From Spirochaetales bacterium (GTDB lineage: Bacteria; Spirochaetota; Spirochaetia; SZUA-6; RPPD01), in assembly GCA_016934415.1 (NCBI GenBank), contig JAFGSW010000039.1:4224-68223 (forward strand): a stretch of 64,000 bases of DNA, given 5' to 3'. The translations under genes and the position numbers were made by a program. Under the pieces are notes generated by a model. It searched no databases, had not been told where the DNA came from, and was given only the letters and a program-made list of their open reading frames with translations. How positions within the stretch are numbered: position 1 is the stretch's first letter; each line of letters starts with the position of its first letter. Positions 7,449-62,350 of the stretch are shown here, piece after piece.

Positions 7449-8513
7449 ATGTGGATTCTCATTGGAGCCCTGATCCTCCTCCTCTTCCTGGCCGTCGGCG
7501 CGTTTTTCATCCTGCGGCGTCTCGGGGGGAGGAAATTCCCCTGGGTGCAATTTTACATTCGGGGCAAGGAATCAGGGTTCAGCTTCAAGGAGATCAACCT
7601 CCTCCGGAGGATCGCCGTCGAGGGGCAGATGCAGAATCCGACGTCCCTCTTCTGGTCCGTCAAGCAGCTCGACCGGTCGATCAGGAGCCTCATCCTCAAG
7701 TACCGTTCTCTGGGCCAGGAAAACGAGGAGAAGAGCGTCTCGATGGTGGCCAAGCTCCTCGCTTTCCGCAAGAAGGTGGAGTTGAGCCAGCCCAAGTACA
7801 AGATCGGCATCAAATCCACCCGCCAGATCGTCCAGCACCAGCGCCTGCGCATCATGCTCCCCGGAGCGGGACCGTTCTTTTCAACGGTCGTGGAAAACCT
7901 GCGGCGCTACATGGCGTTTTCCTATCCGCAGGGGCCGAAGGTGCCGCCCGGCTTTTCCTGGAAGGGCCGTAAAATCGGGGTGTATTTTTTCAGGCAGGCG
8001 GACGCCGGCTACTATTTCCAAACCAAGGTCGCCAACGACTTCATCGACAAGAAATATCCCATCCTTCATGTCGCCCACGCCGACAATTTGATCCGGACCC
8101 AGAAGCGCCGCTCGGTGCGCGTCGATTGCAACCTCCCGGCCATGCTCTACCCGCTTCGCACCTTGAACGAGGGCAATGAGTCGCCCGAGGCGGCGGTCGG
8201 CCTGCGCTCCCGCATTATCGACGTGTCGGAGGACGGCGCCGCCATCCTCATCGGCGGGAAGGCCAAAGTGGGCATCATCATCAAGGTTCAATTTCTCTTG
8301 GGCGATTCATCCATCGTGTTGAGCGGCGTGGTGAAGAACATCAATTTCGATCCCAAGAAAAACCGCTCGATTCTTCATCTCCAGGCGCAGCCTTTGAGCC
8401 TGATCATGCAGAACCGCGTCCTCGAGTACGTGTATAATATTTTCGGCGAGCGCGAAACCCCATCCTCCTTCACTCCCGAGAATCCGGACGCGGCGTCACC
8501 GCTGCCGGGCTGA
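7449..8513 (+). CDS. PilZ domain protein with N-terminal TM helix (c-di-GMP receptor, YcgR-like)
   Basis: RRSVR (RxxxR) followed by DVSEDGAAI (DxSxxG); AT-rich promoter upstream at 7380-7448. Confidence 0.6.
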   Translation: MWILIGALILLLFLAVGAFFILRRLGGRKFPWVQFYIRGKESGFSFKEINLLRRIAVEGQMQNPTSLFWSVKQLDRSIRSLILKYRSLGQENEEKSVSMVAKLLAFRKKVELSQPKYKIGIKSTRQIVQHQRLRIMLPGAGPFFSTVVENLRRYMAFSYPQGPKVPPGFSWKGRKIGVYFFRQADAGYYFQTKVANDFIDKKYPILHVAHADNLIRTQKRRSVRVDCNLPAMLYPLRTLNEGNESPEAAVGLRSRIIDVSEDGAAILIGGKAKVGIIIKVQFLLGDSSIVLSGVVKNINFDPKKNRSILHLQAQPLSLIMQNRVLEYVYNIFGERETPSSFTPENPDAASPLPG

Positions 8514-11339: not shown

Positions 11340-12210
11340 GATCAGGGCCGTGCTGGAGAAACACGGGCTCGCCCTCAAAAAACGATTCGGGCAGAATTTT
11401 CTCGTCAACCGCCACGCGCGTGAACGGATCGCCGGGCTGCTCGAGGCGGGACGCGACGATCTTGTCTGGGAGATCGGGCCGGGGCTCGGCGCCATGACCG
11501 GGCTCCTCCTCGAGCGCGCGCGACGGGTCCTGGCCTTCGAGATCGACCGCGGCCTGGTGCGCGCGCTCCGAGAGCTTTTTCCAGACCGCCCCTCGCTTGA
11601 GATCATCGAGGGGGACGCGCTCGACACCATGGGACCGGCGGGGGAGAAGCGCGGGGCGCCAAACCGTATCCTGGGCAACCTGCCGTACTCGAGCGCTTCG
11701 CGCATCATCGCCTTTTTCATCGAGCGGGAGATCGGGGCGCAAAAAATCGTCGTCACCGTGCAGAAGGACCTGGCGCTGCGCATGCGCGCCTCGCCCGGCG
11801 AAAAGATCTATTCCTCGTTTTCGGTTCTGACCCAATCGTTCTTCGACGTCCGCCTTGAATTCGACCTCAAGGGCGGGAACTTTTTCCCGCGTCCCGAAGT
11901 GGACTCCTCCGTCGTGTCGCTCGTCCCGGCCTCCCGGCTCCCGCCGGGACCCGGCCGCGCGGTCTTCTTCCGGCTCATCCGGCTCGCCTTCGGCTCCCGG
12001 CGCAAGACGCTCAACAACAATCTGTTCAAGTCCGGCGCCTTCTCCCCCGAAGAGCTTACGGCGATGCGCGCCTTCTGGGAGCGGCGGGAGTTGAGCCCGA
12101 ACGCCCGCGCCGAGGACCTGGCGCCGGAGGTCTATCGCGATTTAGCCCTCACTCTGGCGGGGATTCACTCGGGAGAGGGAACCACGGATGGGCACGGATT
12201 GGACGGATAA
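11317..12210 (+). CDS. rsmA: 16S rRNA (adenine1518/1519-N6)-dimethyltransferase
   Basis: FGQNFL, EIGPGLGAMT and NLPYSSAS motifs. The C-terminal TTDGHGLDG residues are encoded by a CACGGAT repeat arm. Confidence 0.85.
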   Translation: MNYDSPAEIRAVLEKHGLALKKRFGQNFLVNRHARERIAGLLEAGRDDLVWEIGPGLGAMTGLLLERARRVLAFEIDRGLVRALRELFPDRPSLEIIEGDALDTMGPAGEKRGAPNRILGNLPYSSASRIIAFFIEREIGAQKIVVTVQKDLALRMRASPGEKIYSSFSVLTQSFFDVRLEFDLKGGNFFPRPEVDSSVVSLVPASRLPPGPGRAVFFRLIRLAFGSRRKTLNNNLFKSGAFSPEELTAMRAFWERRELSPNARAEDLAPEVYRDLALTLAGIHSGEGTTDGHGLDG

Positions 12211-12368
12211 CACGGATAGGGAATGGGTAAAAAGTTATTCGGTGAAAAAAACTATATTCGGCCTTTTTATATTTTTTTAAAATATAACATGAATTACGAT
12301 GTTCTTTTTTGTTTCCTCTTCTCCACATCCGTGTGATCCGTCCGATCCGTGTTATCCGTGGTTCTCTT
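12181..12368. repeat. intergenic inverted-repeat element, CACGGAT family
   Basis: Arms cacggatgggcacggattggacggataacacggat and atccgtgtgatccgtccgatccgtgttatccgtgg; the left arm encodes the rsmA C-terminus. Confidence 0.6.
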
Positions 12369-12399
12369 TTAGGAAGTTGAGTCTTCATGACAAGCAGAG

Positions 12400-13061: not shown

Positions 13062-13595
13062 CTAAATATCCAGCAGCTTCGCGTCCTCCCCCTCGTCCAT
13101 GAACTCCGGGAAGGTGTACACCACCGTGCCGGATTGCCGTACCCTCATTTCGATGAATCCCTTGGCCGCGAGCTCTTCCAGATTTTTCTTCGCCTCCCTG
13201 ATGGGGATGTTGCCCTCCAGCGCCACTTCTCCCGGCGTCACCAGGCCCTTGTTTTTCTTGGCCGTGCGCAGGATCACCTGCTCGGGCGATTCCTTCTCCC
13301 GCTTGACCCGCGCCTTCATCGCCTTGAGCTCGGGGATGACGCTGTCGTGCGCGAGGACGGCGTGGTATTTCGCTTCCATGTTGGCTTCGCGGATCTGGGG
13401 AGGGAGGGTGAGAAGATCGTAGAAGGCAAGAATGTGCCCCAGGCCGGGAATAAAGCGGAGCCAGGTGCCCACTCCGTATTTCTTCATGTAGAGGCGATGA
13501 AAACCGGGGAAGCCGATATAAAAACCGAGCGCCAGCAGAATATACGCGAAACCGATGTTGAGATCGCCTTCTCCGTGTCTCCGGTAACGGCTCAT
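13062..13595 (-). CDS. TM2 domain membrane protein with C-terminal cytoplasmic domain
   Basis: NIGFAYILLALGFYIGFPGFHRLYM TM2-like N-terminus. Confidence 0.55.
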   Translation of the reverse strand: MSRYRRHGEGDLNIGFAYILLALGFYIGFPGFHRLYMKKYGVGTWLRFIPGLGHILAFYDLLTLPPQIREANMEAKYHAVLAHDSVIPELKAMKARVKREKESPEQVILRTAKKNKGLVTPGEVALEGNIPIREAKKNLEELAAKGFIEMRVRQSGTVVYTFPEFMDEGEDAKLLDI

Positions 13596-13693
13596 CTGAA
13601 GAATCCCGCCTCTCGTTTTTTTTCAATATAGCTTTCCCGAAAAAGAAAAGCAACAGGCACGGCCCGCCGTCAAGGTATGGTGAAGGAGGATCC

Positions 13694-15241
13694 ATGCTGT
13701 CCAATATCGCGAGCCACGCACTGGTGGGCCTCGAGGGCGAGATTATTTCCGTGGAGGTCGATATCAGGCGCGGCATGCCGGGCATCGACATGGTCGGGCT
13801 GCCGGACAACGCGATGCGCGAGGCCAAGGAACGCGTGCGCGTCGCCATCAGGAACTCAGGCTTCGAATTCCCCCACGACCGGATCCTGGTGAGCCTCGCC
13901 CCGGCCGGGATGCGCAAGGGCGGCGCCTCGTTCGACCTGCCCATTGCGCTGGGCATTCTCGCCGCTTCGGGCCAAGTCGACCTGCCCGCGGGTTGTCCAC
14001 CGCTCGTTCTGGGCGAGCTCAACTTGAGCGGACGGGTGCGGCCCATCCACGGTGTCATCGCGGCGGTAGAGCACGGGCTGGGCCGGAAGCTTGAGGATTT
14101 TCTCATCCCGGCCGACAACCTGACCGAAGCGCGCATCCTGGGGCGGGGAAACGTGTGCGGCATCACCGACCTGGCCCAGGCCGCGCTCCTCTTGACGAGC
14201 GGCTTCGCGGAAGGCCGTATGCCCGAACCCGGGGAATCCGCCCCGCCGGAGAGCCCGCCGCAGGAGGCGTACGGGGACCTGGCCGACCTCAAGGGCCACC
14301 TCGTGCTCAAGCGCGCGCTCGAGATCGCAGTGGCCGGACGCCACCATCTCCTCCTCTTCGGACCGCCGGGGAGCGGCAAGACGATGGCCGCCCGGCGCCT
14401 GCCGGGCATTCTGCCGCCGCTCTCCGCCGAGGAGTCGCTCGAGGTGACGCGCATTCACTCGGTGGCGGGTACGCTCGACAACGGCGGTCGCCTCATCACC
14501 CGGCCTCCCTTCCGGGCGCCGCACCATTCCGCCTCCCTGGAAGGCGTGATCGGCGGCGGCAAGTGGTGCCGGCCGGGAGAGGTCTCACTGGCTCACCGCG
14601 GCGTATTGTTTCTCGACGAGGCGCCCGAATTCCGGCGCGGGCTCATGCAGTCCCTGCGCGAGCCGATCGAGCAGCAATCGGTCACGATCGTGCGCGCAGA
14701 CCAGAAGGTGAGCTTCCCCTCGTCTTTCCAGCTCGTGCTCACCGCCAATCCCTGTCCCTGCGGCAACCTCGGTCGGCAGGATAAGGTCTGCCTCTGCAGC
14801 CCGGAGGAGGTCAACCGCTACTGGCGGCGCCTGGGCGGCGCGCTTCTCGACCGGGTGGATATCCGCGTGCCGGTGAAGCCGGTGAGGGCCTACGATCTTA
14901 CCGGGAGCCGGACTGAGTCGAGTGACGAGGTGCGCGAACGGATCGAGCGCGTCGCGGCCGTGCAGGCCGAGCGGTACCGCGGGCTGTCGTTTTCCCGCAA
15001 CGGCCAGCTTCCCGCCGGCCTCATCGAAAAATACTGCCCGCTCGACGGCGAGACGCTCTCGCTGCTTTCCCGGGCCGTGGAAAAACTCTCGCTCTCGTCG
15101 CGCGCCTTCCATTCCATCCTGAAGATCGCGCGCACCATCGCCGACCTCGAGGGGGAGGAGAAGATCGGGAAGGAGGCGCTCCTCGAGGCCGTCCAGCACC
15201 GCCGTTACGGGGAGGAGAACGCGTTCTGGGGGTACGGTTGA
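13694..15241 (+). CDS. yifB: YifB/ComM family Mg-chelatase-like AAA+ ATPase
   Basis: GPPGSGKTM Walker A and N-terminal Lon-like domain. Confidence 0.9.
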   Translation: MLSNIASHALVGLEGEIISVEVDIRRGMPGIDMVGLPDNAMREAKERVRVAIRNSGFEFPHDRILVSLAPAGMRKGGASFDLPIALGILAASGQVDLPAGCPPLVLGELNLSGRVRPIHGVIAAVEHGLGRKLEDFLIPADNLTEARILGRGNVCGITDLAQAALLLTSGFAEGRMPEPGESAPPESPPQEAYGDLADLKGHLVLKRALEIAVAGRHHLLLFGPPGSGKTMAARRLPGILPPLSAEESLEVTRIHSVAGTLDNGGRLITRPPFRAPHHSASLEGVIGGGKWCRPGEVSLAHRGVLFLDEAPEFRRGLMQSLREPIEQQSVTIVRADQKVSFPSSFQLVLTANPCPCGNLGRQDKVCLCSPEEVNRYWRRLGGALLDRVDIRVPVKPVRAYDLTGSRTESSDEVRERIERVAAVQAERYRGLSFSRNGQLPAGLIEKYCPLDGETLSLLSRAVEKLSLSSRAFHSILKIARTIADLEGEEKIGKEALLEAVQHRRYGEENAFWGYG

Positions 15242-19624: not shown

Positions 19625-19685
19625 AAACCGGGATCTCCCTTCGCCTTTGGTGTTGACTCTATTCGGCGATCGTTCTAATTTAATA

Positions 19686-19706
19686 AAAATGAAAACCATT
19701 TTCAAT
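19686..19706. promoter_or_regulatory. Fur-type box AAAATGAAAACCATTTTCAAT in the divergent nifU-like / DUF1007-NicO region
   Basis: 20 of 21 positions match the reverse complement of the fur-promoter box. Confidence 0.6.
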
Positions 19707-19789
19707 ATACAGTCAGACCCCGCTTCACCGAGACGGGTCGACGATGCTTTTCGGGACGCGCGTGGCTGTCGGCGCGGGGAAGAAAAAAA

Positions 19790-28088: not shown

Positions 28089-28138
28089 TTGACAGAGTGT
28101 GTAAAGTGAGGTATATTGAAAATGGTTATCATTTTCAA
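28089..28138 (+). promoter_or_regulatory. fur promoter (ttgaca-N17-tatatt) overlapped by palindromic box TTGAAAATGGTTATCATTTTCAA
   Basis: 9-5-9 perfect inverted repeat overlapping the -10 element. Confidence 0.7.
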
Positions 28139-28150
28139 TAAGGAGTTCGT

Positions 28151-28612
28151 ATGCCGCATGGGCACGGACACAGGTGGGGACAGAAATTATCGGGCTGCGG
28201 GTTCAGGTTGACCGTCGGCCGCGAGGCCATTATAGACGTCCTTTCGCGCTCGGACAAGCACCTGAGCGCCGAGGATATCTTCCTTGAGCTGCACGCCGAC
28301 CACCCGGGCATTGGTTTGACGACCATCTACCGGACCCTCGAGCTCCTGGTGCAGACGGGAATCGTGGCCAAGTTCGAATTCGGCCACGGCCGGGCCAAAT
28401 ACGAGCTCACCGAGGAATACGGCAAGAAAAAGCACCACCATCACTTGTTTTGCAAAAGCTGCCAGACGATCATCGATTATTCGGATTTCATGGAAGATGA
28501 AATCACCTATATAAAGAAAACGGAAAAAGGGCTGGCGAAAAAATACGATTTTCAGATTGACGGTCACATCATAAATTTTTACGGGCTGTGCCGCGCCTGT
28601 CGGGCGAAATGA
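28151..28612 (+). CDS. fur: Fur family transcriptional regulator
   Basis: HHHHLFCKSC and GLCRAC motifs; its own promoter carries a 23-bp palindromic box. Confidence 0.85.
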   Translation: MPHGHGHRWGQKLSGCGFRLTVGREAIIDVLSRSDKHLSAEDIFLELHADHPGIGLTTIYRTLELLVQTGIVAKFEFGHGRAKYELTEEYGKKKHHHHLFCKSCQTIIDYSDFMEDEITYIKKTEKGLAKKYDFQIDGHIINFYGLCRACRAK

Positions 28613-41873: not shown

Positions 41874-42320
41874 ATGGGACTGAAGGACGCGGCTGATAAC
41901 CTCACCGAGAGTATGGAGGACTACCTGGAAGCCATCTTGTTGCTGGCGCACGATCATACGGTCGTCCGGGTCAAGGACCTGATGCATTTCCTCAATTATA
42001 GAGTCTCCTCGGTCAACAGCGCCGTCAAGAACCTGGCCGAGCGTGGACTGGTCGCCCATGAGAAATACGGGCATGTGGAGTTGACCCCGGCCGGCCGCAC
42101 CGTGGCGGAGAAGGTCTATTCCCGCCACGAGAACATATTCCGGTTTTTCCAACAGGTGCTCGGGGTGGAGAAGGATACGGCGCGCAACGACGCCTGCCGG
42201 ATCGAGCATTCCTTGAGCTCGGAAACCTACGCGCGTTTTCTCGGATTTATAAAATATATAGAAGGCACGCTCTCGGCGGAAGAGATCGCCAGAGGCATCA
42301 GCAAGTACCGGAAAAAATGA
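41874..42320 (+). CDS. DtxR/MntR family metal-dependent repressor
   Basis: MEDYLEAI N-terminus; divergent from feoAB. Confidence 0.8.
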   Translation: MGLKDAADNLTESMEDYLEAILLLAHDHTVVRVKDLMHFLNYRVSSVNSAVKNLAERGLVAHEKYGHVELTPAGRTVAEKVYSRHENIFRFFQQVLGVEKDTARNDACRIEHSLSSETYARFLGFIKYIEGTLSAEEIARGISKYRKK

Positions 42321-42734
42321 CGAATAAAGCCCGGAAGAGGCGGCGGCGGATTCCTCCGGGAAAAAACCGGAGGCTGACGCCGCTCGCGCCGGGGGAATAA
42401 GGCATTTCATCTTCAGCTCGGTCGGCGCCGCCGATATCTTTCTCGCCTTCCAATGATTTGGAGAAGCCTCGGCTTTTATTTTCACCGGACTTTCTAAAAC
42501 CATTTATCATCGTGAACCGAAACCAATAAGATCTTCCCGCAGCCGCGTCTCGGCTTCGCTCGACGAACGCCTTTTCTTCTTTTCAGCGCGGGCGAGACGC
42601 CCGCCCTACCTAGCCGTGGTTCCCTCTCCCCCGGGAAGGGCACCCGCGCTTTACACTCCTCCCGCGAGATGCTACCATCCGCTAAACCGGTCACGGAACG
42701 GCGGGTTCCACTTCGATCGAATAAGGTTCGGATA

Positions 42735-44000: not shown

Positions 44001-44383
44001 GGAAGAGAACCACCCTTCGGCTCGCGGAGAAAACGACTCCAACATAGACGCGGTTCGGTCCGCCGCCGGAAACTGCGTTGCGAGGTGCGCTCAGGGCAGG
44101 CTCCTGACACGGCTGGGTAGTGCGGGCGTCCCGCCCGCACTGAAGAGTGAAAAACCACGGATCAAACGCGGATGTACGCGGGTAATGAAGGAAGAGGAAA
44201 AGACAAAGACTTGCGAACACCATTTCGATTACAATGATGTCGATGGAATAACGTACTGCCGATAGATCATCTCCGCAACTTTTTGTATATTCTCAACTAC
44301 ATACTTTCGTTACTCAGACGCCGGCGGGACATTGCCGGTGAACGGCTCTATGAAATACTTGTAGAGACGACGGATGTGAGGAT

Positions 44384-45784
44384 ATGGGAAAGACATTGTT
44401 GACCAAGGTGTGGGACATGCATAAAGTGGCGACCCTGCCCACGGGCGAGGACCAGCTCTTCATCGGACTGCACCTCGTGCACGAGGTGACCTCGCCGCAG
44501 GCCTTCCAGATGGCGCGGGCCAGGGGGCTGCCGGTGCTCTTCCCGGAGCGCTCCTTCGCCACGGTCGACCACATCGTGCCGACCCTCGTCCAGGAGCGGC
44601 CTTTCGGCGATCCCCAGGCCGAGGCGATGATCGCCGAGCTTGAAAAGAACGTCCGGGCCAACGGCATCCGCTACTTCGGCCCGGCGAGCGGCCGCCAGGG
44701 GATCGTCCACGTCATCGGGCCGGAGCTCGGTCTCACCCAGCCGGGGATGACGATCGCCTGCGGCGATTCGCACACCTCCACCCACGGCGCGCTCGGCGCG
44801 CTGGCGCTGGGAATCGGCACCTCGCAGATCCGCGACCTGTTGGCGACCCAGACCCTGGCCCTCCGCAAGCCCAAGCTCCGGCTCATCAAGGTCGAGGGCG
44901 ACCTGCCGCGGGGCGTGTTCGCCAAGGACGTCATCCTGCGGGTCATCGCCGACCTGGGCGCCCGGGGCGGCATCGGGTACGCCTACGAGTACGGCGGCGG
45001 CACGGTTGCCGGGCTCTCCATGGAGGAGCGGCTCACCATCTGCAATATGAGCATCGAGGGCGGCGCCCGCCTGGGCTACTGCAACCCGGACACGACCACC
45101 TTCGATTATATCGCGGGCCGCGAGCTCGCCCCCGCGGGCGGGGAGTTCGAGCGGGCGGTGCGCTTCTGGGAAGGCGTCGCCTCCGATCCGGACGCGACCT
45201 ACGACGACGTGTACCCGCTCGACGCCGCGACGCTCGAGCCGATGGTGACCTGGGGCATCAACCCCGGGCAGGGCGTCGGCGTCTCCGGGCGCATTCCGCG
45301 GCGCTCCGATCTTCCGCCCGAGCGGCGGGACGCGGCCGCGCAGGCGCTCATCCACATGAAGTTCGCCGAAGGAGAACCGGTCAAGGGACGGAAGATCGAC
45401 GTCGCCTTCCTGGGCTCCTGCACCAACGGCCGTTTGAGCGACCTCAAGGCGGCGGCGGCCGTGCTCAAGGGAAAAAAGATCGCGCCGCATGTCCGGGCCC
45501 TGGCCGTGCCGGGATCGCAGGCCGTCCGCCGCCAGGCCGAGGAGCTCGGCCTGGACGCCGTGTTCCGGGACGCGGGGTTCGAGTGGCGTCACGCGGGCTG
45601 CTCGATGTGCCTGGCGATGAATCCCGACCGCCTGGTGGGAGACCAGATCTGCGCGAGCTCGTCCAACCGGAACTTCATCGGCCGGCAGGGATCGGCCAAG
45701 GGCCGGACCATTCTCATGAGCCCGGCCATGGTGGCGGCCGCCGCCCTGGCCGGTGAGGTCATCGACGTCCGGGATGTCATGTAG
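44384..45784 (+). CDS. leuC: 3-isopropylmalate dehydratase large subunit
   Basis: Aconitase-family enzyme with CGDSHT and GSCTNGR motifs. Confidence 0.95.
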
Positions 45785-45807
45785 CTACGAAGAAGAATAA
45801 GTCGATA

Positions 45808-45945
45808 AGGAAACCAGGAAACCAGGAAAAAAGGCAAGCAGGAAGGGAGAAAGGGAGAGAGAGGAAGAAAAAAATGAAAATAAAAATGCCTTTTTCTGTT
45901 TTTCTTTGTCTTTTTTCTTTTCCTGGTTTCCTGGCTTCCTTATTG
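45808..45945. repeat. intergenic inverted-repeat element, GGAAACCAGG family (leuC-leuD spacer)
   Basis: ggaaaccaggaaaccagg .. AT-rich centre .. cctggtttcctggcttcc. Confidence 0.6.
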
Positions 45946-45980
45946 TTTTTTCTTCTATAAAGTGAAGCGGAGGAATAACG

Positions 45981-46595
45981 ATGGCGAAAGGGAAAACAAT
46001 CGTAAAGGCAATCAAGGGCCGGGCCATTCCCCTGCCGGGAGACGAGATCGACACGGACCGGATCATCCCCGCGCGCTTTTTAAAGGCGATCACGTTCGAG
46101 GGGATCGGACGGTACGCGTTCTTCGACGAGCGGTTCGACGAGGGGGGAGGCGAGAAGCCGCACCCGCTCAATGACGCGCGCTACCGGGGCGGAAGCATCC
46201 TCTTTGTAAACAAGAACTTCGGCTGCGGCTCTTCGCGCGAGCACGCCCCGCAGGCGCTCCTTGATTGGGGCGTTCGCGCGCTCGCCGGCGAATCCTTCGC
46301 CGAGATCTTCGCGGGCAACTGCACGGCGCTGGGGATGCCGGCGGTGCGTCTTTCGCGCGAGGCGATCGCGACGCTCATGGAAGCGGCCGGGGCGCGTCCG
46401 GAGACCGAGTTCGCGATCGACCTCGAGACGATGACAATCCGCTTCCCGAACGGCGAGCTTCCGTTCGAGCTCCCCGAGTCGAGCCGGCAGGCCTTTCTCC
46501 TGGGGACCTGGGACTCGACCGAGGGACTCCTCTCCCACGTGGAAGAGATCCGGGCCAGGGCCCGCGCGCTGCCGTACCTGAATGGCTTCCGGTGA
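45981..46595 (+). CDS. leuD: 3-isopropylmalate dehydratase small subunit
   Basis: Aconitase swivel domain. Confidence 0.9.
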   Translation: MAKGKTIVKAIKGRAIPLPGDEIDTDRIIPARFLKAITFEGIGRYAFFDERFDEGGGEKPHPLNDARYRGGSILFVNKNFGCGSSREHAPQALLDWGVRALAGESFAEIFAGNCTALGMPAVRLSREAIATLMEAAGARPETEFAIDLETMTIRFPNGELPFELPESSRQAFLLGTWDSTEGLLSHVEEIRARARALPYLNGFR

Positions 46596-46596
46596 A

Positions 46597-46736
46597 GGGG
46601 AGGAGAACCACGGATTGGCGCGGATAAGACGGATGGCACGGATGGGAGAAGAGGCGGAATAAATAGAATGGGTTATTTTTTCCGGAAAGATCTTCATTTC
46701 CTTCCTGTGCTTCGTTCCTCTTCGTGTCCTCTTCCT
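46597..46736. repeat. inverted-repeat element (leuD-ilvD spacer); left arm GGGGAGGAGAACCACGGAT
   Basis: Purine arm, AT-rich centre and pyrimidine arm. Confidence 0.55.
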
Positions 46737-46804
46737 AAACGGTTTGGGAAAATACCGTGTTGGCTTAAGTATGTTTGAAAAAAAACGAGAAACGGGAGGC
46801 AATC

Positions 46805-48481
46805 ATGGCGGAACAGCTGAACCGGCGCAGCCGGGAAATGACGGAAGGCTTGTCCAGGACCGCAAACCGCGCCATGCTCCGCGCGGTCGGGTTCAAAGAC
46901 AAGGATTTCACCAAGCCGATCATCGGCCTGGCCAGCGCGGGGAGCGAAGTCTCGCCCTGCAATTACCATCTCAACGAGCTGGCCGAGTGGGCCAAGGAGC
47001 CGCTTCGCAAGCGGGGCGGCGTGCCGCTCCAGTTCAACACCTTCGTGGTGACGGACGGTGAGGCGATGGGCCACGAGGGGATGAAGTGCTCGCTTCCGAG
47101 CCGCGACACGATCGCGGACGTGATCGAGCTGGTGGCGCGCGGCCACAAAATGGACGCCCTCTTCGGCCTGGGCGGCTGCGATAAGACCATCCCCGGCACG
47201 GTGATGGCCATGGCCCGCCTCAACCTGCCCTCGATTTTCCTCTACGGCGGCACGATCCTGCCCGGGAAATACCGGGGCCGGGACGTGGACATCGTCAGCG
47301 CCTTCGAGGCCGTCGGCGCCGCCGGACGCGGGATCATGAGCGAGGAGGAGCGGCACGGCATCGAGTGCGCCGCCTGCCCGGGCCCCGGCGCCTGCGGCGG
47401 GATGTACACCGCCAACACCATGGCTTCCGCGATGGTCGCCATCGGCATGGCGCCGCCGGGAAACGCCTCCCTCCCCGCGGTGGACAGGGCAAAGCGCGCC
47501 GAAATGGGGCGGGCCGCCGGTTTTCTCACCGGGCTCATCATAAAGAACATCAGTCCGCGGGACATCATGACCCGCCGGGCCTTCGAGAACGCGATCCGGA
47601 CGGTGATGGCGCTCGGCGGCTCCACCAATGCCGTCCTCCACCTCCTCGCCCTGGCCAGGGAGGCGGAGGCGCCGCTCACGGTGGACGATTTCAATCCCTT
47701 CGCCGAAACCACGCCCATCCTCTGCGACATGAAACCGGCCGGGCGCTACGTCATGAACGACCTGCACCGGGTCGGCGGGGTGGAGGCGGTGATGAAGATG
47801 CTCCTCGACCGGGGACTCCTCCACGGCGACTGCCTGACGGTCACGGGCCGGACGCTCGCGGAGAACCTGGCCGGCGTGCGCGTGTCCCTGGAGGGGCAGG
47901 ACGTCATCCATCCGTTCGAGCGTCCGGTGAGGGCGGCGGGACCCATCTTCATCCTCAGGGGCAACCTGGCGGAGGAGGGCGCCGTCTTGAAGACCTGCGG
48001 CATTGAGAAAGCGGAGCATTCAGGCCCGGCCCGGGTGTTCGAGCGGGAGGAGGAGGCGCTGGCGGCGATCCTGGACGGGAAGATCCGCAAGGGCGACACC
48101 ATCGTTATCCGCTACGAGGGGCCCAAGGGCGGGCCGGGGATGCGCGAGATGCTCGCCCCCACCGCGGCGATAGCGGGCGCGGGGCTCCTCAATGACGTCG
48201 CCCTGATCACCGACGGCCGCTTCTCCGGAGGAAGCCACGGCATTCTCGTGGGGCACATCGCGCCCGAGGCGCAGGTCGGAGGGCTCATCGCCTTCCTCAA
48301 GGACGGCGATATGATCACCATCAGCGCCTCCCGCAAGCTCCTCCAGGCCGACGTGAGCGACGAGGAAATCGCCCGGCGCAAGGCCGGCTGGAAGCCCCGG
48401 GAGATCGCCTACACCCACGGCGCGCTCTACAAGTACGCGAAATTGGTGTCCTCGGCGAGCCGCGGCGCGGTCACCAGTTGA
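46805..48481 (+). CDS. ilvD: dihydroxy-acid dehydratase
   Basis: CDKTIPG and SGGSHG motifs. Confidence 0.95.
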
Positions 48482-48487
48482 ACGCGG

Positions 48488-48506
48488 GATCCGTGGTTCT
48501 CCTCCC
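48488..48506. repeat. lone arm ATCCGTGGTTCTCCTCCCC, exact reverse complement of 46597-46615
   Basis: 19 of 19 positions match in inverted orientation, with ilvD lying between the two arms. Confidence 0.6.
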
Positions 48507-48585
48507 CTCTTTTTCACGCAGACCCCGGAAAACCCATGGCACATATCCCCGACTTTATGTATATTGACTGACAGAGGGTAGGATT

Positions 48586-49821
48586 ATGAAAATCTACAGC
48601 CTGAAACACCTGTTGGTCGCGGCCGGCGGGACCTTGGCGGCATTTATTCTCATAGGGGCGCTCCTGGGGTTCGTCACCTGGCCGTTCGACGGCGCGGTCC
48701 GGGCGGCGCCGGCTGTGCCGGCGGAAAACGTCGCGGCCGGCCCGGACCGGACGGTGGACGATTCGCCGTCGCCCTATTTCGAGCAGAACCTCGCGCCCGC
48801 GCCGTCTCAAGCCATGTCGCAGGACGAGAAGGAAAACGTCGACATCTACCGCCGGCTCAACGAGGCGGTCGTCAACATCACCTCGACAAGCTACGGGTAC
48901 AACTGGTTCATGGAACCGGTGCCGCAGCAGGGCACCGGCTCCGGCTCGATCATCAACCGGGAGGGCCACATCCTCACCAACTTCCACGTGGTGGCCAACG
49001 CCGAAAAGCTTACCGTCACGCTTTTCGACGGCAGCGAGCGGGAAGGCACGATGGTGGGCGTGGACCCGGAGAACGACCTGGCCGTCATCAAGATCGATCC
49101 CAAGGGCGCACAGCTCGTTACCGTTCCCTTCGGCTCCTCGAGCGAGCTCCTCGTCGGAAACAAGGTGCTCGCCATCGGCAACCCCTTCGGGCTGGAGCGC
49201 ACCCTCACCACCGGCATCGTCTCCGGCCTGGGCCGGCCCCTCCGCATCAACCAGAACTACGTCATCCGCGAGATGATCCAGACCGACGCCGCCATCAACC
49301 CCGGCAACTCGGGCGGGCCGCTCCTTAACACGCGCGGCGAGCTCGTCGGCATCAACACCATGATCTACTCGCCGTCGGGGGGGTCCGTCGGGATCGGGTT
49401 CGCGGTGCCCATCGACATCGCCAAGCGGGTCGTACCGGAGCTCATACGAGCGGGCATGGTGGATCGCGGGTGGATCGACGTGACGCCGGTGCAGCTCTTC
49501 CCGGCCCTCGTCGAATACGCCAAGCTGCAGGTCACCCAGGGGCTCCTCGTGTCGGAGACGGCGCCGGGCGGACTGGCCGAACGGGCGGGGATCAAGGGCG
49601 GCGCCCGGTCGCGGGGGGTCCGCTACCGCGGGAACATGATCTACCTCGGGGGGGACGTCATCACCGAGGTCGACGGCGTGGCCATCTCGGGCATCCAGGA
49701 CCTCTACGCGGCCCTGGAAAACTCGAAGCCCGGCAAGGTCGTGCCCGTCAAGGTGAACCGCAACGGCCGGATCGTGGAGCTCAAGGTCCAGCTGGCCCGT
49801 CGCCCCCATGCGAACAACTGA
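48586..49821 (+). CDS. htrA: HtrA/DegP family serine protease (trypsin domain + PDZ)
   Basis: TNFHVV, GNSGGPL and PDZ domain. Confidence 0.9.
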   Translation: MKIYSLKHLLVAAGGTLAAFILIGALLGFVTWPFDGAVRAAPAVPAENVAAGPDRTVDDSPSPYFEQNLAPAPSQAMSQDEKENVDIYRRLNEAVVNITSTSYGYNWFMEPVPQQGTGSGSIINREGHILTNFHVVANAEKLTVTLFDGSEREGTMVGVDPENDLAVIKIDPKGAQLVTVPFGSSSELLVGNKVLAIGNPFGLERTLTTGIVSGLGRPLRINQNYVIREMIQTDAAINPGNSGGPLLNTRGELVGINTMIYSPSGGSVGIGFAVPIDIAKRVVPELIRAGMVDRGWIDVTPVQLFPALVEYAKLQVTQGLLVSETAPGGLAERAGIKGGARSRGVRYRGNMIYLGGDVITEVDGVAISGIQDLYAALENSKPGKVVPVKVNRNGRIVELKVQLARRPHANN

Positions 49822-50049: not shown

Positions 50050-52047
50050 ATCGACTTCAAAGTAACGGCCGATTTCGACGTTGCCGGAGACCAGGGCCAG
50101 GCGATCGACAAGCTCGCGGCGGGCGTCGCGTCCGGGGAACGCTTCCAGACCCTGAAGGGCGTGACGGGTTCGGGCAAGACGTTCACCATGGCCAAGATCA
50201 TCGAACGGCTGAACCGGCCCACGCTCGTCATCTCCCACAACAAGACGCTTGCCGCCCAGCTCTATCGGGAATTCCGGGATTTTTTCCCGAACAACGCTGT
50301 CGAGTACTTCGTCTCGTACTACGACTATTACCAGCCCGAGGCCTACGTGGCCAAGCACGACCTCTACATTGAAAAGGACGCCTCCATCAACCAGGAGATC
50401 GACCGTCTCCGCCTCTCCGCGGCCGCCTCGCTCATGGAGCGCAGCGACGTCATCGTGGTGGCCACGGTCTCCTGCATCTACGGCCTGGGCAATCCCGAGG
50501 ACTACAAGGGCATGCGGATCGAGCTTAAAAAGGGCGGGGATGACGGCCCGCGTCGGCTTGCCTCCCGGCTGGTCGCCCTCCAGTACGAGCGGAACGACGC
50601 GGTCCTGGAGCGCGGCCGCTTCCGGGTGCGCGGCGACGTGGTGGAGATCGGCCTGGCCTCGGTCAAGGCGGCCCTGCGCATCGAGTTCTTCGGCGACGAG
50701 ATCGAGCGCATCCGGCTCGTCGATCCCCTCACCCTGGAGACCCTCGAGGAGCGCGAGCGGACTTTCGTCTACCCGGCCAAGTACTTCGTCATGCCGCACG
50801 AGCGGGTGGAGCGGGCGATCGAGAAGATCCGATCCGAGCTCGACGCGCGCTACCGCGAGCTCCTGGACGCCAAGAAGCTCGTCGAGGCCGAGCGGCTGAA
50901 GACGCGCACCGAGTACGACCTCGAGATGCTCTCGGAGATGGGCTACTGTCCCGGCATCGAGAACTACTCGCGCCACCTCTCGGGGCGCGAGGCGGGCGAG
51001 CGGCCGTGGGTACTCATCGACTTCTTCCCCGACCCCTTTCTCACCTTCATCGACGAGTCGCACGTCACCCTGCCGCAGATCGGGGGCATGTACGAGGGCG
51101 ACCGCTCGCGCAAGACCTCGCTTGTCGAATACGGCTTCCGCCTGCCCTCGGCGCTCGACAACCGGCCGCTCGTATTCAAGGAGTTCGAGGGCCTGCTCGA
51201 TTCCGTCGTCTACGTGAGCGCCACGCCGCAGGCCTTCGAGCTCGGGAAATCATCGCGCGTGGTCGAGCAGCTCATCCGGCCCACCGGCCTCCTCGATCCC
51301 GCGGTCGAGGTGCGTCCGACCGCGGGCCAGATCGACGACATCTACAAGGAGATTACGCTCCGGGTGGAGCGGGGCGAACGGAGCCTGGTCACCACGCTCA
51401 CCAAGAAGATGGCCGAGGAGCTCACCGACTACCTGGCCGACCTGGGGCTCAAGGTCCGCTACCTCCACTCGGAGATCGAGACGATCGAGCGGGTGGAGAT
51501 CCTGAAAGCCTTGAGGGCCGGCGAGTGCGACGTGGTGGTCGGCATCAATCTCCTCCGCGAGGGACTCGACCTGCCCGAGGTGTCGTTCATCGCCATCCTG
51601 GACGCGGACAAGATCGGCTTCCTGCGCTCCACCACCTCGCTCGTCCAGATCATCGGGCGGGCGGCGCGCAACGTGAACGGCACGGTCGTCATGTACGCCG
51701 ACCGCGCGAGCGACGCCATGAAGGAGGCCATCGCGGAGACCGAGCGGCGCCGCGCCGTGCAGGCGGCCTACAACGAGGAGCACCACATCACCCCGGTCAC
51801 CATCACCAAGGCCGTGCACGACATCCTCGAGCGCAGGATCAAGGAGAAAGAGGAGAGCGAGCGGGTGGAGATCGAGGTGCTCAAGAAGAGCTACAACCTG
51901 CTTGTGCCGCGCGAGCGCAAGGCCTACCTCCGCAAGCTCGAGGAGGAGATGCTCGAGATGGCGAAGAACCTGGAATTCGAGCGCGCCGCGGCGTTGCGCG
52001 ACGAGATCAAGGCGGTCAACGAGATGTTTCAGCCTGACTCCGGGTAG
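50050..52047 (+). CDS. uvrB: excinuclease ABC subunit B; apparent AUC start codon
   Basis: FKVTADFDVAGDQ..GVTGSGKTFT motifs. There is no in-frame ATG/GTG/TTG between the TAG at 50011-13 and the conserved N-terminus. An AAGGAGG SD lies 5 nt before the ATC at 50050. Confidence 0.85.
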   Translation: MDFKVTADFDVAGDQGQAIDKLAAGVASGERFQTLKGVTGSGKTFTMAKIIERLNRPTLVISHNKTLAAQLYREFRDFFPNNAVEYFVSYYDYYQPEAYVAKHDLYIEKDASINQEIDRLRLSAAASLMERSDVIVVATVSCIYGLGNPEDYKGMRIELKKGGDDGPRRLASRLVALQYERNDAVLERGRFRVRGDVVEIGLASVKAALRIEFFGDEIERIRLVDPLTLETLEERERTFVYPAKYFVMPHERVERAIEKIRSELDARYRELLDAKKLVEAERLKTRTEYDLEMLSEMGYCPGIENYSRHLSGREAGERPWVLIDFFPDPFLTFIDESHVTLPQIGGMYEGDRSRKTSLVEYGFRLPSALDNRPLVFKEFEGLLDSVVYVSATPQAFELGKSSRVVEQLIRPTGLLDPAVEVRPTAGQIDDIYKEITLRVERGERSLVTTLTKKMAEELTDYLADLGLKVRYLHSEIETIERVEILKALRAGECDVVVGINLLREGLDLPEVSFIAILDADKIGFLRSTTSLVQIIGRAARNVNGTVVMYADRASDAMKEAIAETERRRAVQAAYNEEHHITPVTITKAVHDILERRIKEKEESERVEIEVLKKSYNLLVPRERKAYLRKLEEEMLEMAKNLEFERAAALRDEIKAVNEMFQPDSG

Positions 52048-52085
52048 GATCAACTCCCCGGGGAATTTATCAGGAGACTATGAAG

Positions 52086-52197
52086 GACAGGAAACCAGGA
52101 AAAGAGGGGGAAAAAAAGAAAGAGAGAGAAGGGGAAACAGATTTTCTTTTACTTTTTATCTCTTTCTCTTTTCCGGTTTCCTTTCCTCCTGGCTTCC
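52086..52197. repeat. intergenic inverted-repeat element, GGAAACCAGG family (downstream of uvrB)
   Basis: ggaaaccaggaaaagag .. ctcttttccggtttcc. Confidence 0.55.
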
Positions 52198-52240
52198 TCA
52201 TAAAATCTTTCCAATTGAGTGGAATGGACGAAGATTATAG

Positions 52241-54222: not shown

Positions 54223-54270
54223 GAGATGGGGGAAGATGAGGGAGATGGGGAGGGGAAGAAGACATGAATG
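54222..54270. repeat. GGGGAAGATGAGG-family purine-rich arm, left flank of the AT-rich DUF4332 island
   Basis: Its reverse-complement partner lies at 55014-55106. Confidence 0.5.
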
Positions 54271-54277
54271 ACGTGAA

Positions 54278-54964
54278 TTAAACATTTCCAATGATTCTGG
54301 GATAGATTTTAGCCCAATATATGTCGGATGTTATTTCTTTCTCAGTTGGTATCGCTCTCTTCAATGTCCGTTGTTCTATAATGCGTTCCATTTCCTTTCT
54401 CAATTTATCAGGGTCCCTTTTACCCAATTCAAATAAAGACATAATGCCGACGTGCATGAATAGATCGGCCTTTATTTCCTTAATTCCGGGTTTTCTGAAT
54501 AAATCAGCCAAAGCGAGAATTTTATGAAAGGTGTTCTTCGGAATTTCAGTTCTCCGTTGCAGCGAAAGCGATTTTTCTTTTGTTGAACAAGAGAGCAAGA
54601 GCTCTCCGTTTGTTTTAATGCCGTTTACTTTCAGTTTCTCGATATGCTTTTTATCAACACCGATAATTATTTTCAATTGATACGGTTTATATTTGTGAAA
54701 TTGCAATAATTGAAATAATAGCCTTACATAAGTCATATCAACCTTCGTTTTTTTTATAAGGTGATGTAAGTCATTATCATTCTGCATTACCAAGAATAAA
54801 TCATTTGAGTCTTTGATACTATTCAATGGAAGTACCGTACAAATATTCTTCAAATTTTCAATTGAATTCCAATATGATCGGGTTAATGTTTTCTCTCCCA
54901 ATACGCTGAAAAGATCGTTTATCTTTATATTGTTTAGTTCTTTATTGTTCACATCGGTCTCCAC
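54278..54964 (-). CDS. DUF4332-like (HhH) protein on an AT-rich island
   Basis: ~32% GC versus the ~64% flanks; GTG start; C-terminal LADLFRKPGIKEIKADL..DPDKLRKEM pattern. Confidence 0.5.
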   Translation of the reverse strand: METDVNNKELNNIKINDLFSVLGEKTLTRSYWNSIENLKNICTVLPLNSIKDSNDLFLVMQNDNDLHHLIKKTKVDMTYVRLLFQLLQFHKYKPYQLKIIIGVDKKHIEKLKVNGIKTNGELLLSCSTKEKSLSLQRRTEIPKNTFHKILALADLFRKPGIKEIKADLFMHVGIMSLFELGKRDPDKLRKEMERIIEQRTLKRAIPTEKEITSDIYWAKIYPRIIGNV

Positions 54965-55013
54965 TTATGGGAATTGCTTTCACCGCTTATACAAATATCC
55001 TGACCTCTCTGAT

Positions 55014-55106
55014 TTTTTCCCTCCTCTCCATCTTCCCCATCTTCTTAATCTTCCCCATCCGTAGTTCCCTCACCTCCTCATTTTCTTCATCCGCAGTTTC
55101 TCTCAC
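55014..55106. repeat. pyrimidine-rich arm (ccatcttccccatcttcttaatcttccccatccgtagtt), right flank of the DUF4332 island
   Basis: Inverted relative to 54222-54270; a similar string occurs at 59921-59950. Confidence 0.5.
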
Positions 55107-56057: not shown

Positions 56058-56261
56058 GCCGCGAAGCTGCGGAAAATCGAGGAGAAAGCGGAGTGGGACG
56101 CTTCATGGCCTCAAGACCCGGTACGCCTCATTTTATCCCGAACGGGGGAGCGTGTCCAGATTTCCGGATGGGGGAAGATGAGGAATTCCGGGAGGAAAAG
56201 AGTGTTTCTCTTCCGATAACCGAAACTCATGCTTTCAGCGCAATTTATCCGACCCGATCCG

Positions 56262-56342
56262 CTGATTTCCCCTTTCCGCTTCCATCTATAATGCATGACC
56301 GTGTATACAAATGCACTCTATGGCGGGCGGGACGCCCGCCAT
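56262..56342. repeat. ~80-bp conserved intergenic repeat ending in GC hairpin ATGGCGGGCGGGACGCCCGCCAT (copy A)
   Basis: Roughly 85% identical to 59836-59916. Confidence 0.6.
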
Positions 56343-59809: not shown

Positions 59810-59835
59810 TTAAATTTCCGCCTTTCCCCGACCTG

Positions 59836-59916
59836 CTGATTTTCTCTTTCCGCTTCTATCCATAATGCTTCATCTTGTATACGAATGCACTCTATGGCGG
59901 GCGGGATGCCCGCCAT
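59836..59916. repeat. ~80-bp conserved intergenic repeat ending in GC hairpin (copy B)
   Basis: Same orientation and a similar position upstream of a minus-strand gene. Confidence 0.6.
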
Positions 59917-59971
59917 TTCTCTATCTTCTTAATCTTCCCTATCCGTAGTTTTCAAAGCCCTCCCCGGAACG

Positions 59972-61427: not shown

Positions 61428-62153
61428 TCATTTAAAAAGCGAGAATGATGCATGGTATTCGTCAAGCTCCCAATTGTGGGAGTTATAGTGGACATATTCC
61501 CTGATTTTATCCAATTCCCGGTCGTTCCGGATTATTCGGTCGTAGAATCGGGGTTGCCAAATCGGTGATCCGATGCGCACCGTGACGGCGGATTTGAAGC
61601 CGGCTACAAACGACGAAAAGGATTTCGGGGAACGATTCGCGATAGGGCACGATTTTTTGGAATCCGATTGTAGAGACGCACGGCCGTGCGTCTCTACGTT
61701 TTCCGGCTTATAAACGTGATCCCGGTTCACGCGAACATTCCGCGGGTCTTCGCGGCCATGTGTCCGTACAATTGTATCCCTGATAATCACGATCCCGTGC
61801 ACGTGATTGGGCATGACGCAATACGCGTCACAATCCAATTCCGCGCGGATCCCGAACGATTTCAACCATTCCGACTCGACGATTTCACCCGCCGGCGACA
61901 ATTGCATTCGCCCCCGGACGACGCCGCCCAGGAGACATTCCATGTTCCGGGTGCACAGGGTGATGAAATAATACCCGGGAGCGGAATAATCCCGGTTTTT
62001 CAACCGCGTCGAATCGATTCTGTATTTCGTTACATTCAAATTCCGGCTCACGGCATTCCCGCCTTTCCACGCATAAGGAAACCGCGGTTTCAGCCCGGTG
62101 AATTCAAATACACGTTCGCATCGGGGACAGGGTTTTGGGGAGTTAATTGGCAA
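61428..62153 (-). CDS. REP-associated tyrosine transposase (RAYT, IS200-like HuH); a REP palindrome lies inside the ORF
   Basis: YYFITLCT, MPNHVHGIVI (HuH), and FKSAVT..WQPRFYDRIIRN..YVHYNSHNWELD motifs. Confidence 0.7.
   Translation of the reverse strand: MPINSPKPCPRCERVFEFTGLKPRFPYAWKGGNAVSRNLNVTKYRIDSTRLKNRDYSAPGYYFITLCTRNMECLLGGVVRGRMQLSPAGEIVESEWLKSFGIRAELDCDAYCVMPNHVHGIVIIRDTIVRTHGREDPRNVRVNRDHVYKPENVETHGRASLQSDSKKSCPIANRSPKSFSSFVAGFKSAVTVRIGSPIWQPRFYDRIIRNDRELDKIREYVHYNSHNWELDEYHASFSLFK
61670..61697. repeat. REP palindrome GTAGAGACGCACGGCCGTGCGTCTCTAC (inside the RAYT ORF)
   Basis: 28-bp perfect palindrome. Confidence 0.7.
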
Positions 62154-62183
62154 CGGAAACCGGTTTTATTTGGGAATTGAATC

Positions 62184-62211
62184 GTAGAGACGCACGGCCG
62201 TGCGTCTCTAC
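62184..62211. repeat. REP palindrome GTAGAGACGCACGGCCGTGCGTCTCTAC
   Basis: Identical 28-mer with a conserved ggaatYSRaTYgtagag 5' flank. Confidence 0.7.
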
Positions 62212-62263
62212 GATACCGTCCAATACATTACTCCGGATTCGCACGTATATTTCGCAAAAAACC

Positions 62264-62282
62264 ACGGCCGTGCGTCTCTACG
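62264..62282. repeat. REP half-copy CACGGCCGTGCGTCTCTAC inside a ~78-bp tandem repeat unit
   Basis: Unit (REP ..ccgtccaata..tccgRa..atttcgcRaaaa) repeated 2.2 times across 62181-62340. Confidence 0.55.
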
Positions 62283-62350
62283 TTTCCCGTCCAATAAATA
62301 GAATCCGAACCGACACGAACATTTCGCGAAAATCCACGGGCGCCTGCGGC

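Follow-up and report, generated by a model that had tools for sequence, protein, structure and literature searches.

We analysed a 64-kb stretch of DNA (64,000 nucleotides, hereafter the window) from the Spirochaetales bacterium assembly GCA_016934415.1, in which the complete dihydroxy-acid dehydratase gene ilvD is bracketed by two perfect inverted copies of a 19-mer, GGGGAGGAGAACCACGGAT. The two copies are most probably the outer ends of a single ancestral hairpin, H, of the leuD-htrA spacer, split by insertion of a segment that carried ilvD together with a hairpin of another type, K, so that the bracket would be a scar rather than a transposon or a switch. The perfect 20-bp match then reflects a shared origin as the two strands of one stem. 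We favour insertion of ilvD at this site over its loss elsewhere because two other lineages keep an intact, self-complementary hairpin at the same place.

Inverted repeats around ilvD

The left copy of the 19-mer lies at 46597-46615 on the plus strand. Its exact reverse complement spans 48489-48507, shifted rightwards by one base from the position (48488-48506) given by an earlier, sequence-only reading of this DNA, whose left coordinates and claim of perfect inverted repeats both hold. These are the sole matches in the window even when three mismatches are allowed, compared with 0.01 expected from shuffled sequences. An additional pair, A46596 with T48508, extends the perfect pairing to 20 bp (46596-46615 / 48489-48508), and an RNA duplex of the two 20-nt copies, which stand 1,873 bp apart, has a computed free energy of -39.9 kcal/mol. 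Both copies are outside coding sequence: a single base separates the leuD stop (46593-46595) from the left 19-mer, and seven bases (ACGCGGG) separate the ilvD stop (48479-48481) from the right copy. NCBIfam assignments confirm the gene order leuC, leuD, ilvD, HtrA-like protease and UvrB, within which the following features are placed (L-numbers denote the sequences compared; MFS, major facilitator superfamily).

44001-44014, plus strand: hairpin relic, a left terminus (GGAAGAGAACCACC) that immediately follows the MFS stop
44384-45784: leuC, identity confirmed by NCBIfam profile
45981-46595, plus strand: leuD, the left neighbour, whose stop abuts the left terminus; 69% amino-acid identity to the leuD of L100
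46596-46615, plus strand: left terminus (stem base) of the putative ancestral hairpin H, a 20-nt perfect inverted repeat of 48489-48508
46597-46664, plus strand: left arm of H, made of the terminus and four CGGAT units followed by a purine-rich tail
46665-46735, plus strand: AT-rich centre and right arm (CTTCGTG type) of the different hairpin K, homologous to the CACGAAG/CTTCGTG hairpin of L081
46805-48481, plus strand: ilvD (NCBIfam NF002068/TIGR00110), the probable cargo inside the split hairpin
48482-48488, plus strand: ACGCGGG, the seven bases from the ilvD stop to the right terminus; L081 has the same junction sequence, TGAACGCGGGATCCGT
48489-48508, plus strand: right terminus of H, probably the sole remnant of its right arm, where homology to the htrA-upstream regions of L085 and L100/L088 starts
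48536-48565, plus strand: htrA promoter-like region (ATGGCA...TATATT) from a promoter scan, which anchors the orthology of the right terminus
48586-49821, plus strand: htrA-like serine protease gene, the right neighbour, by profile match
50161-52047: uvrB, by profile match

The units of the left arm recur with a period of roughly 10 bp (CACGGAT TGG CGCGGAT AAG ACGGAT GG CACGGAT). ilvD is identical to MBN2352457.1, annotated as 'MAG: Spirochaetales bacterium' (MAG, metagenome-assembled genome), and its composition is native, with 68% GC and a GC fraction at third codon positions (GC3) of 0.91 beside 0.92 for leuC and 0.91 for htrA. Because the composition of ilvD matches that of its neighbours, its relocation within the genome is likelier than a recent foreign acquisition.

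Relatives without ilvD at this site

The evidence that carries the split-hairpin reading comes from two groups of relatives. In the JGI contigs L100-L103 and L088 (amino-acid identity 80% for leuC, 69% for leuD, 79% for htrA and 89% for uvrB) the order is TrkH (minus strand)-leuC-leuD-htrA-uvrB-SH3-DUF445, without ilvD, and the 302-bp leuD-htrA spacer of L100-L103 is one hairpin. Its left end stands directly after the leuD stop (TAG, then GGGGGGAAACTACGGATGGCGTGGATAAACGCGGAT..., beginning GGGGGGAAACTACGGAT...), and its right end, ...GGTAGTTATCCGTAGTTTCTTTCTTCCC (...ATCCGTAGTTTCTTTCTTCCC), directly before the conserved htrA promoter region. These are exactly the positions of the two 19-mers in the window, the left terminus at 46596-46615 being the positional orthologue of the GGGGGGAAACTACGGAT end that follows leuD in L100 and L101. 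The sequence-only reading had offered a chance meeting of two separate elements as one explanation; the same two positions in L100-L103 are the ends of one uninterrupted hairpin, which contradicts that proposal and bears out the view of the two sequences as a true pair of element termini with an entire housekeeping gene in between.

The second group, the JGI contigs L085-L087 (amino-acid identity 86% for FeoB, 91% for uvrB and 79% for htrA), has the order FeoB-FeoA-repressor-epimerase-MFS-htrA-uvrB, without leuC, leuD and ilvD. There the MFS-htrA spacer is filled by one complete hairpin of about 250 bp whose right end, ATCCGTGGTTCCCTTCCCCC, aligns with 48489-48507. Homology between the window and L085 upstream of htrA starts exactly at ATCCGTGGTTC and runs through the promoter-like block ATGGCACATnTCCCCGACTTTnTGTATATTG, which is kept in L085 and has a recognisable, more diverged version, ATAGCATCTCCCGCCCTTTTTTTTGTATATTG, in L100. 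With both L085 and L100/L088, homology starts exactly at ATCCGT[GA]GTT, the outer end of the complete hairpin in those genomes. Because L085-L087 and L088/L100 have this right end without ilvD, it was in place here before ilvD was. The left arm in L085 looks composite, with an 18-nt MFS-proximal terminus followed by a second terminus-like sequence.

Other relatives provide context for the gene order. A distant relative, on contig P0005, has a tight ilvB-ilvN-leuC-leuD-ilvD operon with no hairpin spacers, so the order leuC-leuD-ilvD is not unusual in itself. L082 and L083, with ilvD at 83-84% identity, have other neighbours and no such hairpins and do not reveal a donor site; a scan of genome contigs with ilvD gave only relatives at or below 70% identity, whose synteny is uninformative, as is contig P0006 with its Planctomycete-like gene neighbours.

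A hairpin end also marks the site after the MFS gene. Where the window has the relic at 44001-44014, L085 has TGA followed by GAGAACCACCGATGACAC and a hairpin arm, and L081 has GGGAACCACCGATAACAC. In comparison with L085-type genomes, the relic marks where the leuC-leuD(-ilvD) block ends on its other side. A model in which this relic was the partner of the right 19-mer, with the leuCD-ilvD block splitting an MFS-htrA hairpin, was dropped because L100-L103 have the order leuD-hairpin-htrA, and the relic is instead a separate, neighbouring junction.

The leuD-ilvD spacer in a close relative

The close relative L081 (GCA_964554445.1; amino-acid identity 95% for ilvD and 94% for leuC) has the same order as the window, MFS-leuC-leuD-ilvD, with ilvD in the same place and orientation and an identical TGAACGCGGGATCCGT junction. 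Since L081 is an independent assembly, the junction between ilvD and the right end is not an assembly artefact. The L081 leuD-ilvD spacer lacks the left 19-mer, so the bracket itself is not conserved. Homology stops in the last leuD codons, leaves 46597-46664 without a counterpart and resumes at AGAATGG (46665); LeuD ends in ...FRQVT in L081, ...FR in the window and ...FRA in L100.

The L081 spacer holds a complete self-complementary hairpin in which four CACGAAG units face CTTCGTG units, and its left arm is 96.6% reverse-complementary to 46698-46726 of the window. In the window, the segment 46665-46735 is not complementary to the left arm that adjoins it. A left arm of CACGGAT type and a right arm of CTTCGTG type make the spacer a chimera, whose fold scores z -2.4 vs -6 to -10 for intact hairpins. 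According to the sequence-only reading, a composite unit would be mistaken if each arm belonged to its own complete hairpin in relatives. This is the case in part: L081 has a separate complete hairpin in the leuD-ilvD spacer, the right half of which survives in the window at 46665-46735.

The L081 contig stops 13 nt after the ilvD stop, within the repeat terminus. It also contains, at 7866-7964, a run of N with a duplicated ilvD 5′ end, and it ends at 9657; hairpins of this kind appear to break or confuse short-read assemblies.

A probable history: a hairpin split by insertion

These comparisons can be arranged as a history of three steps. H, a single ancestral hairpin, would once have filled the leuD-htrA spacer. 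In the common ancestor of this genome and L081, as synteny suggests, a segment consisting of hairpin K (CACGAAG/CTTCGTG type) and ilvD would have inserted into H, removing the H loop and all of the H right arm except its last ~20 nt. In the lineage of the window the K left arm would subsequently have been lost, fusing the H left arm to the K centre and right arm, and in L081 the H left arm would have been lost along with the last leuD codons; both of these later steps derive from a comparison of two genomes. The insertion may have begun with a break in the palindrome, caused by stalled replication or by cleavage of a hairpin or cruciform; after asymmetric resection, the ends would have been joined illegitimately to a relocated fragment of native DNA. 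Breakage and repair as the most likely trigger is our conjecture; the loss of the loop and one arm at ilvD, with junctions at the stem base or within the arm, fits it.

The direction of change is argued on two further grounds. Inverted ends invert, and do not delete, by simple recombination, and for this reason the intact hairpins in two other lineages are best read as ancestral. An ancestral leuD-ilvD-htrA order, moreover, would not explain the half of a second hairpin that lies beside the H left arm.

Several points weigh against this history. Its polarity rests on parsimony over only three roughly equidistant lineages, represented by metagenomic contigs. The left junction is rewritten in both descendants and the scenario of two deletions is not unique; a loop exchange between two hairpins followed by homogenisation of the arms in L081 would fit as well. 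Only 6 nt of the right end are visible in L081 before its contig ends 13 nt past the ilvD stop. Neither the donor site of ilvD nor the original junctions could be identified in sequence among the relatives compared. Finally, the same 19-mer caps hairpins in unrelated contigs; identity alone is no proof of partnership, and the argument depends on positional orthology.

Alternative explanations

This last point is the strength of the reading in which the juxtaposition is a matter of chance, the left 19-mer belonging to a leuD-ilvD hairpin, the right one being the leftover of an unrelated htrA-upstream hairpin, and their match reflecting no more than a family consensus terminus. The identical 19-mer caps hairpin arms in three unrelated contigs, L092, L095 and L094, the last of which has a complete hairpin, and the hairpin that follows DUF445 in L088/L100 ends in a near-identical sequence, GGGGAGGAGAATTACGGAT. 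Arms with GAACCACGGAT are widespread (73 IMG/VR stretches vs 13 for a reversed control pattern), and L081 has a complete independent hairpin in its leuD-ilvD spacer. We nevertheless consider chance quite unlikely: a single hairpin in L100-L103 reaches from the leuD stop to the htrA promoter region, the arm beside the left 19-mer shows no complementarity with the right half of the spacer in which it lies, and the other termini in the window and its relatives differ from the 19-mer in the 8 nt outside GAACCACGGAT.

Slightly harder to credit is the reverse polarity, in which leuD-ilvD-htrA is ancestral and ilvD (and leuCD) disappeared from genomes of the L100 and L085 types, where the flanking halves came together again as a hairpin. 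The tight ilvB-ilvN-leuC-leuD-ilvD operon in the distant P0005 relative is consistent with such an ancestor, and the composite-looking left arm of L085 with a deletion there. Yet this polarity needs two independent and precise losses of ilvD, each restoring a complementary hairpin, and it does not predict half of a second, different hairpin in the spacer of the window. Simple recombination between inverted repeats, moreover, does not delete the DNA that they enclose.

Less probable again is that selection keeps the pair perfect for long-range pairing as an RNA duplex of 20 bp, with the ilvD message looped out, for example for RNase III processing, stability, or insulation of leuD, ilvD and htrA from one another. 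Such a duplex would be very stable (-39.9 kcal/mol) and better matched than the outer stems among the intact hairpins examined, both copies are noncoding, and an excess of G.U-compatible over A.C mismatches (64:32; see below) hints at selection at the level of RNA. Set against this, L081 lost the left copy with ilvD otherwise unchanged, the G.U excess comes from partly non-independent hairpins and could be explained by strand-biased mutation, and a recent split of one stem would leave the ends perfect too. A local intrinsic terminator was likewise considered and rejected: the scan finds none at either 19-mer, and L085/L100 have not conserved the T-run that follows the right copy.

A composite mobile or invertible unit, in which ilvD is moved or flipped through the repeats, acting as recombination sites or as terminal inverted repeats, as the sequence-only reading had also proposed, is highly improbable: perfect 20-bp inverted repeats 1,873 bp apart do surround a complete gene with its own upstream region, and the family terminus is conserved over distant organisms as transposon ends are, but no recombinase accompanies them, the right end predates ilvD here (L085 and L100 have it without ilvD), and in L081, where the left repeat is absent, ilvD stands at the same site and points the same way. 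Of the about 60 open reading frames (ORFs) in the window scanned with Pfam/NCBIfam, none codes for a transposase, an integrase or an invertase. The flanks of the repeats, ...CCGGTGA on the left and CTTTTTCAC on the right (GGTGA and CTTTT at the junctions), show no target-site duplication, and neither do the hairpin copies A and B described below or H. No insertion sequence (IS) copies flank the repeats, which measure just 20 bp, at or below the usual minimum for RecA-dependent recombination. The unit has not moved as a whole in the manner of a composite transposon, the ilvD-less L085 and L100 keeping the ends as one intact hairpin. An inverton would show both orientations in a population or in relatives; the window and L081, the one close relative, show the same one.

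Long hairpins in the window

The sequence-only reading had assigned the 19-mers to a CACGGAT element family, and this family is real: complete hairpins with ends GAACCACGGAT...ATCCGTGGTTC occur at about 1176-1396 and 12164-12372. The window has 61% GC, with AT-poor genes and AT-rich spacers, and many of its spacers fold as very long hairpins, with z scores of -6 to -10 relative to shuffled sequences. These share one architecture, by which we define a hairpin family of this clade and in which a 5′ purine-rich arm of three or four short units with a period of about 8-10 bp is followed by an AT-rich centre and a mirrored 3′ pyrimidine-rich arm. Complete examples are the following.

1176-1396: CACGGAT-type hairpin, copy A; z -6.0
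12164-12372: CACGGAT-type hairpin, copy B; z -9.3
45790-45950: hairpin with unit GGAAACCA in the leuC-leuD spacer; z -9.7, largely conserved in L081
49846-50030: hairpin AACTACGGAT ... ATCCGTAGTT in the htrA-uvrB spacer; z -6.2, with an orthologous hairpin in L085
52072-52205: hairpin between uvrB and the SH3 gene, by fold relative to shuffled sequences

Measured against this architecture, the ilvD bracket retains just both ends and the left arm. The unit varies by locus, being CACGGAT in copies A and B, CACGAAG elsewhere, GGAAACCA between leuC and leuD, and GATGGGG/GAAGATG after DUF445. Several hairpins have in common an outer end of the form GAAC[CT]ACGGAT ... ATCCGT[AG]GTTC, preceded by a G/A-rich flank.

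None of the hairpins matches an Rfam 15 covariance model at its gathering score; the only similarities, below threshold, are to plant and animal microRNA-precursor models, as expected of a generic long hairpin. A literature search by sequence string and topic found no description of this hairpin family among the papers covered. A coding reading of the arms was rejected, the small ORF being present in copy B only and its frame not conserved in copy A, and a DnaA-box-like reading of the motif was rejected on sequence. At the position of hairpin 52072-52205, L085 has an 80-amino-acid 'gene' call (13542-13784) that is probably a spurious ORF on the hairpin.

In hairpins between co-directional genes of the window, L081 and L085, arm mismatches that are G.U-compatible on the sense strand outnumber A.C mismatches 64:32, a count in which the hairpins are partly non-independent. 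The excess hints at selection on RNA structure, and strand-biased mutation could give the same ratio.

A second gene inside a hairpin

A further hairpin of the window also encloses a gene.

54223-55081: second split hairpin, with complementary left (54223-54261) and right (55013-55081) arms

Between its arms lie 770 bp of DNA with 27-39% GC, including a 228-amino-acid DUF4332 gene on the minus strand (54278-54964; 34% GC). The post-DUF445 hairpin of L088/L100 is uninterrupted and has no gene inside. On composition and synteny, DUF4332 looks like a foreign gene captured inside a palindrome, and because it gives a second case in the same window it points to a general tendency to gene capture at hairpins. 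The junction anatomy differs between the ilvD and DUF4332 cases, which argues for non-specific breakage over site-specific recombination.

Comparison with known repeats

Miniature inverted-repeat transposable elements (MITEs) such as Correia/NEMIS and ERIC resemble the present hairpins in their conserved termini (here GAAC[CT]ACGGAT ... ATCCGT[AG]GTTC), hairpin-forming transcript, high copy number, occurrence in distant organisms and, in L095, one nested copy. Unlike MITEs, the elements in the window lack target-site duplications, their internal sequence is not conserved between copies and we identified no cognate transposase. They also behave as long residents, standing at orthologous positions at only ~80% protein identity with arms that have co-evolved. 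Presence or absence of whole elements, a MITE trait, is not what we see, the hairpins occupying orthologous spacers across lineages; yet the P0005 operon is without spacers.

Repetitive extragenic palindromes (REPs), with the mosaic BIME and paired REPIN forms, are likewise intergenic, palindromic and present in many copies. The elements described here are larger (140-250 bp vs 20-40 nt, or ~100 nt for REPIN doublets), and their arms differ in being tandem 7-10-nt units with strong purine/pyrimidine asymmetry, an AT-rich centre and locus-specific units. They are not short GC-rich imperfect palindromes with a 5′ GT[AG]G, and no gene for a REP-associated tyrosine transposase (RAYT) was found among the window ORFs scanned. 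Four papers document REPs as insertion targets, mainly for IS elements, and as sites of rearrangement (PMC1525189, PMC3116915, PMC2817692, PMC3184786); the inserted item here differs in being a housekeeping gene rather than an IS.

Integron cassettes offer a similar gene-hairpin-gene-hairpin pattern, imperfect palindromes of ~100 bp at their attC sites and symmetric AAC...GTT end triplets. The ends here are RRRRAAC / GTTYYYY (GGAGAAC ... GTTCTCC) vs RYYYAAC / GTTRRRY in attC, a reversed purine/pyrimidine pattern, and an attC-like reading of the motif was rejected on this sequence difference. Recombination at attC leaves a complete attC on each side of a cassette, unlike the present case, where one hairpin has been divided so that its full left arm stands on one side and a 20-nt stub of its right arm on the other, with no integrase found and with housekeeping genes as the content. 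Composite transposons and invertons share inverted repeats that flank a gene, but differ from the ilvD bracket, which has no IS copies, recombinase or duplications and is not conserved in the sister genome L081.

A further parallel is palindrome fragility of the kind processed by SbcCD, for which long, near-perfect palindromes with AT-rich centres are classic substrates and loss of the loop and one arm, with junctions at the stem base, is an expected kind of outcome. Known outcomes are mostly deletions or loss of viability; to our knowledge, a natural chromosomal palindrome that has taken in a whole gene, here seen twice within 10 kb, does not figure among the standard documented ones. A review covers long AT-centred palindromes as fragile sites (PMC7999016).

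Other repeats and rearrangements in the window

Several further loci show repeats or hairpin ends. At 42320-42669 the window lacks an NmrA-like epimerase gene that L085 has between the iron repressor and MFS genes and L081 has directly upstream of the MFS gene; what is left is a lone right terminus, AGCCGTGGTTCCCTCTCCCCC (42604-42637), ahead of the conserved promoter region of the MFS gene, a further case of rearrangement where a hairpin ends. Relative to L081, the window has an extra insertion of ~83 bp at 44015-44097. Upstream of leuC, at 44118-44215, a GC-rich stem-loop, GTGCGGGCGTCCCGCCCGCAC, is followed by an array resembling a left arm (AAACCACGGAT CAAACGCGGAT GTACGCGGG...) that has no evident right arm; both are conserved in L081.

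Three genes on the minus strand, one Kre9/KNH-like, one of no assigned family and one for an M48 peptidase, lie between the two copies of a 90-nt direct repeat (56253-56342 / 59827-59916; 87% identity), both of which end in a GC-rich stem-loop. Outside the repeat lie a hairpin left arm (56167-56201) and right arm (59917-59950), and either a third split hairpin or the duplication of a promoter region may account for the locus. Three copies of a REP-like perfect palindrome, GTAGAGACGCACGGCCGTGCGTCTCTAC, which starts with GTAG, surround a 241-amino-acid ORF (61667-61701, 62180-62214 and 62252-62286). An AT-rich motif of ~27 nt (for example TTGAAAATGGTTATCATTTTCAA) occurs at 15318, 19681, 24095, 24188, 28114, 28629 and 54652, and is palindromic at 19680-19710 and 28111-28141. 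It stands upstream of metal-related genes, namely DUF1007/NicO, Fur (28151-28612) and peroxiredoxin, and from its sequence and placement looks like a putative Fur-type operator site.

Distribution and significance of the hairpin family

The hairpin family extends well beyond this genome. The exact 19-mer occurs in eight JGI metagenome contigs, capping a complete hairpin in L094 and a repeat arm in L092. L095 (135-375) holds two nested hairpins, one of CACGGAT type with the same 19-mer lying within the arms of one of CACGAAT type, which suggests either that one element inserted into the other or that the stem grew outwards. The GC content of these metagenome contigs ranges from 53 to 68%. The pattern GAACCACGGAT-N3-6-CGGAT was found in 73 IMG/VR stretches (L104-L176), compared with 13 for the reversed control pattern. 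Three or more units are present in 37 of the 80 IMG/VR arms, and 14 of the 80 have an inverted partner 51-75 nt away, compared with none of 13 controls. The hairpins in these unrelated contigs are often short (about 75-95 nt) and perfect.

Rather than passive fragile sites, the hairpins could be a cosmopolitan, sequence-specific element (end GAAC[CT]ACGGAT) that acts as a landing pad for gene capture and changes of gene order through a putative hairpin-specific nuclease or recombinase, with ilvD and DUF4332 as cassettes; we think this unlikely, if less so than the alternatives weighed above. As a case, ilvD is an example of a palindromic intergenic repeat serving as a site of insertion or rearrangement, a kind already known, and the hairpin family involved is widespread and unannotated.

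What the ilvD locus offers is a clean natural case of a chromosomal palindrome that holds an entire housekeeping gene and whose uninterrupted form is kept in relatives. One hairpin is seen in three states, as MFS-H-htrA, as leuD-H-htrA and as leuD-H left part-ilvD-H right part-htrA, and 6 kb from ilvD the DUF4332 gene, clearly foreign, lies inside another hairpin. If this behaviour is general, hairpins would be useful as markers of rearrangement and would be a cause of contig breaks in MAGs, as in L081, whose contig ends in the repeat; they would also be the places at which gene order changes in this spirochaete lineage.

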